From Octopus vulgaris (taxonomy: Eukaryota), in the NCBI GenBank assembly GCA_951406725.2, contig OX597818.1, positions 23,312,001 to 23,376,000 of the forward strand: a stretch of DNA of 64,000 bases. The letters run 5' to 3'. Shown piece after piece: positions 44,541 to 49,606 of the stretch; within the stretch, counting starts at the first letter, position 1; the number at the start of each line of letters is the position of its first letter. Below the pieces are notes generated by a model. The model did not search any database. It saw only the letters and a list, made by a program, of their open reading frames with translations, and had not been told where the DNA came from. The position numbers and the translations under genes are program-made.

Positions 44541-45362
44541 TATGATTAATTTAGTTTGTTTAACACTTAAAAAACGATAGAAGGGAAATGTCTTAACGTT
44601 TTGGATGTTCGTTCTTCAACTGAAGAAAAGCTTAGGACGAAAAGAAGAAAATGATTGAAGAAAGAAAGGAAAACGGATGGATGGTTAGGAGCCTGGTGGG
44701 AAGGTTGTTTTATGGGGGAGCTGAGAAGAGCAGGTTGAGTGCACGTATAGGAGAGTAACTGTGTTTATAAATAGACATAAGGAATGAATGTGGTGTGTAT
44801 GTGGATTTTTATAGGGGTGTATGTCTGTAGAGGAGTGAAAGCGCTGAGGTATAGTGGCGTGGGTTAGTAAGAGTATGAGGTGTGATGTTTGTAATTGTAT
44901 TGAGTATGTGAGAAAAGAGTAGAAGTGAGGAGGAAGGAGCAGGCGTGAGCGTGAAGTAAAGTAGAAGGCAAAGGGAACGTAGAGAGTGTGATCAAAGTCC
45001 ATATAAGTGTATGAATGTGAGACGTACTTGTATGGAAGAAAGACATGAACAAGGGAAGGAAAGTTTGACGAACGGTAAGCATTCAAGATGAGATCAGAAA
45101 AACTAAAGAAAGAATAATTACAACACAGCACTGGTGCTAAAAGGGGTTTTTTGTGTACTGTGAGAGAAAATTAGTGAGGCATGAGGAACGGTGTAAAACA
45201 TATAAATGAAAAGGAGAACATTTTAAAAACTGAAAAAGGAACATGAGAAACAAGTAAAAGAAGAAAAATGCGATTTGAAGAAGAGGAGACAAGTAAGAGA
45301 AAAACAGAATCAAAATTAGAGAAAAATTAGTTACAATACAAAACTGATATGCAAATAAATTT

Positions 45363-45784
45363 GGATCTTTTCGGTTTGAACGGCAGTTTTTTCTAGCGGT
45401 GTCATATGAAATTGTCACCCATAATTATGACCCTAGTATCGATCTATTGCATTTCAATCTGTTTTAGGATTAAGGTTAGAGTTAGGGGTGGGGGAAGGGT
45501 ATCTTTTTTTCTTCACAAATGTAAATAAACCCAATCTGCTTCTTAAACGAGGGACATATTCATACGGTACAGAATGGTTTTTAACTCAACAGACGTCACT
45601 GATTGGTTGAAATTGCAGAAATTGAAGAAAAAAGACAACAAATATCTTACAAACTATAGAATTTTCTCAATAAAGCCAAGAGAAAAATATGTTTTATAAA
45701 CACATTCTATCAGTATACAAAGTTTAAAATTTTTTAGTTACCTAGAAATTATGTTAAAAACTGCCGTTCAAACCGAAAAGATCC
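45363..45784. mobile_element. MITE with ~28-bp GG-ended TIRs (Merlin-like), copy 1, flanked by a 42-bp direct duplication
   Basis: ggatcttttcggtttgaacggcagttttt ... aaaaactgccgttcaaaccgaaaagatcc; 45321-45362 matches 45785-45826 with 1 mismatch. Confidence 0.85.
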
Positions 45785-47962
45785 GAAAAATTAGTTACAA
45801 TACAAAACTGATATACAAATAAATTTTTAAGTTCGGTAAGACAAGAAAATTAAAAACACAATAACTCACCAATAAGAAGTCCAAGAAGGTTATACAACAG
45901 GCGCAAAGTTCGGGGAGGAAGGAATGTCTATAGTATTTGACGAACTGATAACGGTTGGTATGTTAGCACATGTAGAAGTTAAAGCATTTCTAAAGGGGGA
46001 AAAAAAACAGAGAGAATTTTCTTTTAATTACATGACTAGTGGAAAGTCTTGAGAATCAAAGATACTGAAGAAATGCCGGCAGTAAAATCGGGAAATAACA
46101 ACCGAAGAGATTAGAGTCAGAATACATGGCATAAAGGCGTAGAGAAGTATCATTTTATTTATATGGTGGGCGAAAATGGCAGAAAAGGAAATCGCTTAAA
46201 CAGAAAAGGGAATAACAGAACGAGGGTAAGAAATATAGGAAAAGAATATGTTGACGCCGGCATATGAGTATGTGTTTGCTAATGAGTTAGGTGTGAAACA
46301 GTTGTCAAACAAAGCAGGAATGGCAGGGGCGGAGGAAATTACGTGAATGACAATACGTGTGTGCGAATGTGTGTATGGGTGAATATACATTATTACGTTG
46401 GTGTGTGTGTAAGCAGAATGTGTATGCATTTACGTGTCTGTGTGGTGGTGGGCTTCAGATTGTGTATATTGGGGTGAGTTACACGTAGGGTGGGAGGGTG
46501 AGTGAAGTGCACAAGAGCGGTTTGGGAGAGGGGAATAAGGGAGACAAAGGGAAGTTTATAATGATGGGGCAACTGGGGAGGAAAATGTTAGAAAAATTGA
46601 GATGGAGAATTCAGACTGAAAAGTGTGTAAGTTTGGGGAGAGAACATAAGCTCCTCTTTTCCCTGGTGAGGAGTGATGAGTTTATCAATCTGGATGTTAA
46701 CACAGTTATGCGCTGTGCCATATCTCAAATATTGTTTGTGTTGGTAATGAAGGTCATCTTGAAGGCAGTGACGAGTATTATTGTTTAGACCTTGGAAATG
46801 GAAACTGAAAACCACCTCTAATAACCTTTATGGATGACAAGATAGTACCTTCCACGAGGGAGGAAGAAGTACATAGGATACTGAGGCAGTTAGATGAGGT
46901 AGTCACCTCACCCAGAATGAGATTCAAACCTAAGAAGTCACGGAGCCTCCTACTACGGTAGAGGAGGGTGAGTAGCTGTTTAGATCTCGTTCACTGTAGC
47001 CAACCAGCCAATTCCAGCAGTAGTAAAAAACTAGCCAAGAGCCTTGGATGTTCGTGTGACTGATTGTTCCTTGAATGACATAAAAAGGAAAATGAAGCTA
47101 AACAAATGACAGGAGAGAGCTTGTGGGAAATAGACCAGTGTGACTTCTGGTAAATACAAAGTTTGGTGCCCACATTTCATGCAAATACCAAAGCTCGTCC
47201 AGTCTTTCCTGATATGTGATAACAGCACTAGTGGAAATGATGGGCTAAGATTAATAAATACATAAGGAAATGGCTTAATGTCCCACCTTGCCTTATTCAT
47301 ATTGATTTCTACTGTCTCCAAGCAAAATTGAAGCTACCCCTAAAGTCAATCGCAGAATAATACAAGACTGGAAAAGCAAAGATTTTGTGTATGCTTGAAA
47401 ATGCAGAGGATAAGGTTGTGAGGACTAGCAGAAAATAACACGTTCAGAAAGTGGTGGATGCAGCAAAGAAGAGCCTCAAGTTTAGGGAAATATTGGAATA
47501 CATACAAAACACAAACTTGGTGAGGTGGAAGAAATTAGAAAACGCTACATGCCTACTCCACCAAGGCAGACAACTAGGTCATGTCCAGAGCTCATGCAAA
47601 GTGAGCCAGCCTAAAGAAGCTTGCATAGAGGACAATCAAATGCGTAAAAAGATCTTACATACTATGTGTACTGCAAGGGGAAAGATGGTGCCACCAGAAG
47701 ATCGACCAATGTTCCATATGGCAGAGGACAAAAGATTGTAGTCTGGAACAGCTGTCCCAATTGAACCATAGAAGCAGAGTCTAGTGGATGGAATAGATGA
47801 CTGGAAGTGCTCACATATGTAAAGTATAATAGCCATCTCAATATGGCTAACCACAAAGAGGGGTGTTACTGTAGCTTTTTAGCCCCAGGAGATCATCGTC
47901 TCCAGCTGGCTTTAGGCACACTATCTGTCCCCTTATGGTATTTGCAAAGGGAGGCCATCCCG

Positions 47963-48021
47963 GTGATTACCGCCCGTTGATAAGAGGCAATAACCTCGAA
48001 CCGCGGTCCGGTGCGTATCAC
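47963..48021 (+). ncRNA. Type I hammerhead ribozyme motif, U3-A8 variant (copy 1; GAA instead of GAAA)
   Basis: ccg-TTGATAA-gagg(caataa)cctc-GAA-ccgcgg-TC-cgg; one core A is missing; stem III region is the palindrome ccgcgg. Confidence 0.55.
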
Positions 48022-48315
48022 TTAGGCTTACGAGAAAGGGATGGCCTCCCTTTGCAAATACCATAAGGGCACAGATAGTGTGCCTAAAGCCAGCTGGAGA
48101 CGATGATCTCCTGGGGCTAAAAAGCTACAGTAACACCCCTTTGTGGTTAGCCATATTGAGATGGCTATTATACTTTACATTGTTGAGCGATTACTGTTTA
48201 CATCTCGTTCTGAGATTTAATAATGCTTGCAGACAGTTTTTCGAAATCAGTGGCAGAAGTCACTAGAAAAACTCTTATATATTTGCATACAGGCTTTTTC
48301 TTTAATCGTGATCCG

Positions 48316-48375
48316 GTGATTACCGCCCGTTGATAAGAGGCAATAACCTCGAAACTGCGGTCCGGTGCGTATCAC
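48316..48375 (+). ncRNA. Type I hammerhead ribozyme motif with U3-A8 core variant (copy 2)
   Basis: gtgat..ccg-TTGATAA-gagg(caataa)cctc-GAAA-ctgcgg-TC-cgg..atcac. Stems I and II pair, stem III is minimal, and the predicted cleavage is after GUC at 48362. Confidence 0.72.
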
Positions 48376-49188
48376 TTAGGCCTACGAGAAAGGGATGGCG
48401 TCCCTTTGCAAATACCATAAGGGGACAGATAGTGTGCCTAAAGCCAGCTGGAGACGATGATCTCCTGGGGCTAAAAAGCTACAGTAACACCCCCTTTGTG
48501 GTTAGCCATATTGAGATGGCTATTATACTTTACATTGTCGAGCGATTACTGTTTACATCTCGTTCTGAGATTTAATAATGAGTGCTCACATAGCCTTCCC
48601 GAAAATCTTATTCGGAAATCATGAACAAGAGTGATATAAAACTGGATATTGTACTCCACTCACTGTCATTTAACAAATAATTCTGGTTCAATTCAACGTG
48701 TCATATGAAAGCAAAATAGAGAAAGCCCACATCTAAAACATGGAAATTGTGGCAGTGACGCCATCAAATTGAGAGTATCTGACTGCCAAACCAAAGTTCT
48801 TATCATAGAGGTGAGAGCGAGAGGTTTGTGGGCGAATCTACCTACGACCTCATGAAACGGCTCGCAATTTCTGGGGAAAAGATAACTAAAGCTCTTAAGG
48901 CAATGCCGGAAGCAGCCGCAAAGTATCCCAACTAGATATGTAAGGTATAATTTACCTTACGTTCAACTGCTGCTTTAGACCAAAATGCTTACATCACACA
49001 TGGTACTTTGGATCTGGAGTACTTTAAACAGCAAGGAAGGTGGAGGTTACAATACAAATAATAGCACAAAATGTGGAAGCAGATGAGTATCCAAGAATTA
49101 TGACCTTGATGCGATCCGGCCACCTTAGAGTGTAAGGAGTACAGGTTCGAAACATTTGCATGAGATGGGCTTCTTGTTGGCAGACTTC

Positions 49189-49606
49189 GGATCTTTTCGG
49201 TTTAAACGGCAGTTTTTTCTAGCGGTGTCATATGAAATTGTCACCCATAATTATGTCCCTAGTATCGATCAATTGCATTTCAATCTGCTTTAGGGTTAGG
49301 GTTAGGGGTGGGGGAAGGGTATCTTTTTTTCTTCACATATGTAAATAAACTCAATCTGTTTCTTAAACGAGGGACATATTCATACGGCACAGAATGTTTT
49401 TTACCTCAATGGACGTCAATGATTGGTTGAAATTGCAGAAATGCAAGAAAAAAAAAACAACAAATATCTTACAAACTATAGAATTTTCTCAATAAAGCCA
49501 AGAGAAAAAGACGTTTTATAAACACATTCTACCAGTATACGAAGTTTAAAATTTTTTAGTTACCTAGAAATTATGTTAATCTCTGCCGTTCAAACCGAAA
49601 AGATCC
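49189..49606. mobile_element. Same MITE family, copy 2, 8-bp TSD cagacttc
   Basis: Highly similar to 45363-45784; TSD at 49181-49188 and 49607-49614; internal ttagggttagggttaggg. Confidence 0.88.

Follow-up and report, generated by a model that had tools for sequence, protein, structure and literature searches.

A candidate non-LTR retrozyme family with Penelope-type insertion anatomy in Octopus vulgaris, and LINEs that insert at the edge of its hammerhead

Structure of the insertion

The window analysed here is a stretch of 64,000 nucleotides from the Octopus vulgaris genome (GCA_951406725.2, contig OX597818.1, forward strand positions 23,312,001 to 23,376,000), and the element in question is an insertion at window positions 47817-48580, which a first-pass annotation had proposed to be a retrozyme, i.e. 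a mobile non-coding RNA built of tandem hammerhead ribozyme units. Its parts and the flanking repeat are as follows, all coordinates being those of the window.

47806..47816, plus strand: left target-site duplication (TSD), 11 bp, by motif match; single copy in empty-site homologues
47817..47961, minus strand: inverted 5' arm, equivalent to unit positions 48392-48535, without hammerhead or tail, outer end at 3' site S1
47960..48312, plus strand: direct unit 1, beginning at the inversion joint and overlapping the inverted arm by 2 nt
47963..48021, plus strand: hammerhead copy 1, core TTGATAA at 47977-47983, GAAA short by one A, stem III palindrome ACCGCGGT, predicted cut after 48008
48009..48362, plus strand: predicted 354-nt cut-to-cut monomer, bearing the intact core of copy 2
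48305..48318, plus strand: target site (ATCGTGATCCGGTG) of L1/Tx1-type long interspersed nuclear elements (LINEs), empty at this locus
48313..48580, plus strand: direct unit 2 (0.76 unit), terminating at 3' site S2
48316..48375, plus strand: hammerhead copy 2, intact, U3-A8 core at 48330-48336, stem II at 48337-48350, GAAA at 48351-48354, stem III ACTGCGGT, predicted cut after 48362
48536..48580, plus strand: 45-nt 'tail' between the fixed 3' ends S1 (48535) and S2 (48580), from insertion ends and PMC11167929
48581..48591, plus strand: right TSD, 11 bp, by motif match
46680..47816, plus strand: left part of an old, decayed dispersed repeat, 60-80% identical to other copies, HERO label unconfirmed
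48581..48990, plus strand: right part of the same old repeat

The TSD (AGTGCTCACAT) is identical at 11 of 11 positions, a twelfth base, A, being ambiguous, in line with the 11-12 bp of the first-pass annotation, and a motif search of the window finds it twice, both times at an edge of the insertion. When 14 further copies of the flanking repeat from the genome were aligned, eight matched both flanks, and the copies L132 and L143 are continuous across the insertion point; the genomic-copy alignment makes the flanks two halves of one old repeat. The earlier statement that the insertion splits an old retrotransposon thus holds for the split. The host repeat may be HERO-like by its motifs; this label is unconfirmed, as flank fragments used as protein-search queries gave no matches and the frames in the old repeat are decayed.

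Identity between the inverted arm and the direct units is 96-99%, while the direct units themselves (starting at 47960 and 48313) share 97.4% over 268 nt. An inverted arm, a full unit and 0.76 of a unit are therefore present, close to the inverted partial unit and about 1.75 direct units described before. The two GUC triplets have their last bases at 48008 and 48362, a spacing of 354 nt. The core TTGATAA is found at 47977 and 48330, and copy 1 reads GAA where GAAA is expected. The longest stop-to-stop frame within the insertion is 90 aa, in agreement with the claim that no protein is encoded, and GC content is 0.42-0.43 in the 1-kb bins holding the insertion.

The hammerhead and its genomic family

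Comparison with Rfam yielded a match to Hammerhead_HH9 (RF02275) at 48312-48385 (31.1 bits, E 4.4e-5), which falls below the gathering score of 52. The type I topology, the bulged extended stem I and the UUACC/GUA motifs are shared with that family, whereas the unit carries U3-A8 instead of C3-G8. The match, together with the GUC spacing, bears out the proposed type I hammerhead with two predicted cut sites 354 nt apart.

A one-unit query against the genome (2.8 Gb, 227 contigs) returned 3,020 first-look candidates; the 40 that were scored lie on many chromosomes, the best copies being 92-98% identical. Exact cores in the whole genome number 553 for U-A, 556 for C-G, 654 for U·G and 43 for C·A, against 0 for reversed-pattern controls; less stringent patterns were used for U·G and C·A, which limits strict comparison between the counts, and each of the four is a minimum. 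With more than 1,700 exact cores the family is dispersed genome-wide, and tandem units elsewhere in the genome are spaced ~355-360 nt apart (U-A and U·G core searches).

Among 44 aligned hammerheads from 29 loci, all 42 that span positions 3 and 8 have U3-A8. The core state is therefore inherited, and the missing A of copy 1, which had been seen correctly, is a defect private to the window locus in an otherwise intact family. U3-A8 is a lineage trait rather than an oddity, and is one of three pairing states within one family. Hammerhead descriptors restricted to C3-G8 would miss most of the family.

Conservation of core and stems, whose absence would have spoken against the retrozyme proposal, is evident from 29 distinct hammerheads, in which 93.9% of cells are paired, two-sided changes occur at 10 of 20 pairs and pair 3-8 is paired in 29 of 29; none of 500 shuffles scored as high. 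Kinship among the 29 inflates these counts, but slid controls are nonetheless only 29-55% paired. In a tree of 57 body sequences with the core left out, the 12 C-G rows lie on one side of a branch supported at 96/88 and the U3 rows on the other, and U·G rows sit at two places; the tree is midpoint-rooted and hence gives no direction for the change of the 3-8 state. Since C-G, U·G and U-A are each represented by hundreds of copies, the family offers a naturally occurring set of variants at hammerhead pair 3-8. Natural covariation to U3-A8 and its in vitro activity are described in PMC3088659, and ~1,300 Schistosoma motifs of this kind, from Penelope-like elements (PLEs), in PMC4209133.

Stem III is a perfect self-palindrome in 41 of 60 pattern-search hits, four of which are other elements, and 15 more pair fully bar a G·U or the central base. 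A self-palindromic stem III is described as a mark of dimer-cutting hammerheads (PMC4209133), and its presence here makes cleavage as a dimer likely. The palindrome exists in several unrelated versions. CpG decay was considered as the sole origin of its changes and rejected, since it connects only ACCGCGGT and ACTGCAGT and does not account for ACCTAGGT, ACTCGAGT, ACCCGGGT or ACTAGT.

Some relatives of the unit were also recorded. A subfamily B (L029:2680-3275) has a 364-nt unit, 66% identical, with U·U at the stem II base and both U-A and U·G cores. A distant tandem hammerhead repeat of ~330 nt (L032/L091, L054, L029:1900-2600) has a CCGATGA (U4C) core and shares body landmarks. Hammerhead cores at ~1.38-kb and ~1.24-kb spacing (G000:C1:94322213-94326394, C27:8171403-8184365) suggest longer tandem units or local duplications. 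A unit fragment equivalent to window 48472-48535 lies inside another very high-copy repeat (L012:500-910, L182), in which it seems to have been amplified as a passenger; its summed contig depth exceeds 1 million in run X17.

Ends of the insertions

Forty-eight insertions were compared, 25 of them two-armed, with an inverted and a direct arm. The 3' ends are bimodal, falling at S1 or S2, 45 nt apart. Nineteen of the 25 two-armed insertions combine an S1 end with an S2 end, none has the same site twice, and in six one arm ends elsewhere; the first 29 loci had been chosen for reaching S2, and in the 19 loci not so chosen the rule holds for 8 of 12. The window locus is of the S1 plus S2 type. Insertions lie mostly in AT-rich DNA or (TA)n tracts, within which automatic TSD calls in other copies are often ambiguous.

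In an anole PLE, reverse transcription begins at two adjacent internal sites and the intervening stretch becomes the genomic tail (PMC11167929), and an inverted pseudo-long terminal repeat (pLTR), a tail at one end and a TSD of 8-10 bp are described as the PLE norm (PMC3846280, PMC8557442). By analogy, S1 and S2 would be reverse-transcription start sites. The insertions of the unit follow the PLE pattern. The pLTRs of endonuclease-bearing (EN+) PLEs (PMC4209133, PMC3846280, PMC11167929) likewise display an inverted 5' arm, a tail at one end, two reverse-transcription start sites, TSDs of 8-16 bp, AT-rich or microsatellite targets, a palindromic stem III and the U3-A8 variant. The unit differs from them in having no open reading frame (ORF), a hammerhead of canonical rather than minimal size and a tail of 45 nt as against 30-40, and it has no sequence homology to the resident PLE pLTR with which it was aligned. 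A non-coding retrozyme that bears a PLE reverse-transcription footprint, with two fixed starts, one per end, offers RNA positions that can be tested with PLE protein.

The 5' ends and inversion joints (L162-L189) cluster at 48022-48051, around the AAAGGGA..TCCCTTT hairpin and 14-43 nt past the cut site, a cluster partly set by the query edge.

Resident Penelope-like elements

Young, intact PLEs are present in the genome. A 781-aa frame with reverse transcriptase (RT) and GIY-YIG domains holds 16 of 148 GIY-YIG matches, 13 of which were checked. The known resident pLTRs are AT-rich with minimal hammerheads, and at three resident PLE loci the ends fall at two places ~35-38 nt apart. A young two-ORF family (L111-L123, e.g. 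G000:C16:20834800-20841000) has an upstream ORF of ~479 aa ahead of the 781-aa RT/GIY-YIG ORF, pLTRs of 450-560 nt with a minimal U3-A8 hammerhead and palindrome ACATGT, and inserts in (TA)n. A hairpin ahead of the second 3' end appears, by eye only, to be common to PLE and unit, and another PLE family (L124, L129) has a CCGAAGA core.

No unit was found joined to a PLE ORF when five PLE proteins were compared by tblastn with 80 loci and the window, so the permanent attachment to a PLE ORF that would have made the unit an ordinary pLTR is not observed. Matches occurred in five loci; the one inspected is parted from the unit by a microsatellite, and the others are old or distant pieces. At 50 GIY-YIG loci no unit homology was found at the PLE ends apart from neighbouring units. 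Unit matches near PLE ORFs (L079, L121, L124, L130, L019) were considered as evidence of a partner and rejected as separate neighbours. The window element is not the pLTR of any PLE examined.

Mode of propagation

Metazoan non-LTR retrozymes, as defined by Cervera and de la Peña in 2020 (PMC7229834), have non-coding units of 150-450 nt, a type I hammerhead, GC below 50%, a TSD of more than 4 bp, a highly paired monomer and PLEs in the same genome, and the window element has the same sequence-level features, its cleavage and circles being predicted. The monomer at 48009-48362 folds with z = -4.69, none of 100 shuffles being as good, and the stem III duplex of the two window segments is at -11.9 kcal/mol. 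The element is read as a non-LTR retrozyme whose spread to new sites is likely due to PLE protein, with a probability of about 0.8. Directly observed are the family, its covarying ribozyme fold, the pair of fixed 3' ends and, as described below, the target site of the LINE. The first-pass proposal of a retrozyme thereby gains a dispersed family with a covarying hammerhead, no attached ORF, a long TSD and Penelope-type insertion anatomy.

The proposed course of events begins with transcription of a tandem copy, in which two hammerheads would pair via the palindromic stem III, cut at GUC and free a 354-nt monomer, which would be ligated into a circle. PLE protein would then nick both strands of AT-rich DNA ~11 bp apart, and cDNA would be primed from both nicks at the internal RNA sites S1 and S2. 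The two cDNAs would pass the ribozyme junction, sometimes beyond one unit, and be joined head to head, leaving an inverted arm, a direct arm, one tail and a TSD. Loss of the A would leave copy 1 at the window locus with a non-functional core; the intact core of copy 2 in a double hammerhead would cut at 48008, whereas site 48362 would need monomer or trans cleavage, and the freed unit would bear an intact core.

The cDNA traverses the predicted cut site in 17 of 25 loci and begins at the cut site in none, and such read-through implies a template that is either circular or an uncut multimer. Contigs from read runs (three guessed to be RNA, one of unrecorded kind) cover the unit; no conclusion is drawn from them, because RNA ends, strand and circularity are not visible in contigs and tandem DNA gives head-to-tail joints as well.

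Several observations weigh against self-cleavage, circular RNA and a PLE partner. The active monomer fold of copy 2 lies 5.4 kcal/mol above the minimum, the active fold is at least 3.6 kcal/mol above it in all 29 hammerhead rows (ViennaRNA), and in the ensembles computed for dimer and circle the stem I pairs have a probability of 0.0. A second hammerhead on the same strand is present at just 5 of 29 loci, so few copies could release a monomer. An uncut linear multimer would explain the read-through just as well as a circle would, and self-cleavage and circular RNA of the window unit stay predictions. In other systems, 8 of 9 Xenopus retrozyme dimers were uncleaved in vitro, as stated in a preprint (bioRxiv 10.64898/2026.07.22.740005), and the PAc ribozyme is described as requiring protein and as dispensable for insertion (PMC11167929). 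Alignment of the unit with the young PLE pLTR gave no detectable homology (score 61.5, with 240 of 300 shuffles as high), in a partner search that scored 150 of 6,136 GIY-YIG candidates.

The least improbable alternative is that the element is non-autonomous and PLE-mobilised, with a ribozyme that is weak or protein-dependent and with uncut multimers, not circles, as template. The lack of 5' ends at the cut site and an active fold that is not the minimum-energy fold agree with it, as do the spread of U·G cores in hundreds and uncut RNA being the main PAc substrate in vitro (PMC11167929). However, lineages that are 66-97% identical have kept core, stems and palindrome by compensatory substitutions, C·A cores, in which the pair is broken, are rare (43), and related mussel retrozymes, with units of 350-390 nt, are described as cleaving and accumulating as circles (PMC7229834). 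This alternative is accordingly considered unlikely, though it deserves to be taken seriously.

Clearly less probable is that the units are solo pLTRs, that the ORF-bearing copies of the autonomous PLE behind them escaped detection, and that no independent retrozyme exists. Solo pLTRs do arise from 5'-truncated PLEs, the insertion anatomy is the same as in PLEs, U3-A8 is common to the unit and the resident PLE, and the preprint derives retrozymes from pLTRs. Such an origin is at odds with direct head-to-tail unit joints that have no ORF piece between them, with the tblastn matches that are not joined to the unit, and with resident pLTRs that are AT-rich, carry minimal hammerheads and lack unit homology, as against the canonical-size hammerhead with extended stem I in the unit. 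A PLE-copied non-LTR retrozyme remains the favoured reading of the window element.

LINE insertion at the hammerhead edge

At four of the first loci, foreign DNA is joined to the unit at one position just 5' of the hammerhead. The LINE concerned is 5.3 kb long, with a zinc knuckle in ORF1 and an apurinic/apyrimidinic (AP) endonuclease, RT and zinc finger in ORF2. The solved structure closest to ORF2 is human L1 ORF2p (E 9e-53), with R2 at E 2e-23; 57 homologues include one named relative, from Argonauta, and no named Tx1 protein. From its domain layout and likeness to L1 we call the LINE L1/Tx1-type, the Tx1 placement being provisional.

The exact LINE 3' end has 42 copies in the genome, and 42 of 42 are followed by the same target site at the hammerhead 5' edge; the count covers exact 3' ends only, a wider LINE search having given 238 candidates. 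Thirty-seven of these ends adjoin a family unit, 36 of them from the base equivalent to 48305 or a few bases before it and one with a diverged start; two adjoin the distant hammerhead repeat at the homologous place, and in three the duplicated target leads into a further LINE at its 5' end, i.e. tandem stacking. The LINE TSD of 14-17 bp has a fixed right edge and was found by script in 14 of 18 loci and by eye in the other four. The LINE 5' end is kept in 17 of the 18 long-flank loci, a set from which four copies already seen to be truncated were excluded. There is no poly(A) tail in the DNA, and a 12-mer count of the LINE 3' end (4,596 against 3,426 for the control) was uninformative.

Identity among the LINE copies is 92.9-97.2%, against 66.5-97.1% (mean 80.7%) among their flanks. 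On either side, every duplication has the sequence of the subfamily present at that locus, and the LINE insertions are therefore independent. A second LINE family, 82% identical, occupies the same target site. At least two L1/Tx1-type LINE families thus insert specifically at the hammerhead 5' edge (L091-L110, L146-L159), a finding beyond what the reading of a single window could show. The 14-bp site serves them as a specific target, separately from the propagation of the unit itself. Template switching as the origin of the LINE-unit joints was ruled out, since the target is duplicated on both sides. At L029 a third, unrelated sequence ends in a similar AATAAA motif at the LINE target site.

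That the LINE mobilises the unit, or that unit, LINE and unit form one composite element, is largely refuted and very improbable: every LINE copy examined has unit flanks, LINE and flank identities are weakly correlated (Spearman 0.30, 67 of 91 non-independent pairs) and enclosed DNA can be moved in trans by pLTRs (PMC3846280), but uniform LINEs sit in flanks of different subfamilies with locally matching duplications, stacking of LINEs at one site is seen in 3 of 42, and LINE-free units have no poly(A) and show PLE-type ends.

A speculative and doubtful extension is that the LINE depends on the ribozyme in a three-tier parasite system, in which it would be co-transcribed with the retrozyme and its RNA freed by borrowed hammerheads. 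It is likewise only a tentative suggestion, by comparison with the ribozyme that R2 carries itself, that this RNA would be cut on its 3' side ~58 nt past the LINE and on its 5' side by the upstream unit. If true, such dependence would account for the missing poly(A) in the DNA and the many full-length copies. Against it, the duplications match the local target, meaning that donor flank is not carried into new sites.

Relation to known systems

Target-specific Tx1 LINEs (Tx1 into Tx1D, Tx1-Mar into Mariner-N4, Keno into U2; PMC4494074) are described as having the same two ORFs, a single site in another repeat and tandem stacking around a duplicated target; what sets the octopus LINE apart is the use of a hammerhead retrozyme, which it enters at the ribozyme's 5' edge. 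The literature searched, within the parts available, contained no retrozyme as target of Tx1 or another site-specific LINE. A ribozyme element as target adds a new target class for sequence-specific retrotransposons and probably a new site-specific endonuclease.

Unlike the metazoan retrozymes described in PMC7229834, the octopus family has U-A, U·G or C-G at pair 3-8 according to lineage; instead of long arrays it forms scattered copies, 0.5-2.5 mers that have inverted arms and terminate at two fixed positions. A word search of the main text of that paper, with the supplement outside its scope, found no cephalopod, no 'inverted' and no 'tail'. The preprint, as available, deals mainly with vertebrates, links retrozymes and pLTRs by phylogeny and reports cleavage of 1 of 9 dimers; its definition of 'active', two consecutive units with complete hammerheads, applies at L011, for example, and not at the window locus. 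The enzyme that moves animal retrozymes is treated as an open question, PLEs having been proposed from co-occurrence and pLTR similarity (PMC7229834; bioRxiv 10.64898/2026.07.22.740005).

Nothing on a hammerhead ribozyme in octopus appeared in the literature searched, as judged by titles and the starts of abstracts, and the main text of a 2026 octopus repeat annotation (PMC13282606) contains neither 'ribozyme' nor 'hammerhead'. The retrozyme kind and U3-A8 were already known; new are a core pair with three states in a single family, a non-coding retrozyme that bears a strict PLE footprint, and a LINE that targets this retrozyme.

Elsewhere in the window, a ~425-bp element resembling a miniature inverted-repeat transposable element (MITE) occurs in two copies, at 45360-45787 and 49186-49606, which are 91-95% identical and have terminal inverted repeats of 24-32 bp.

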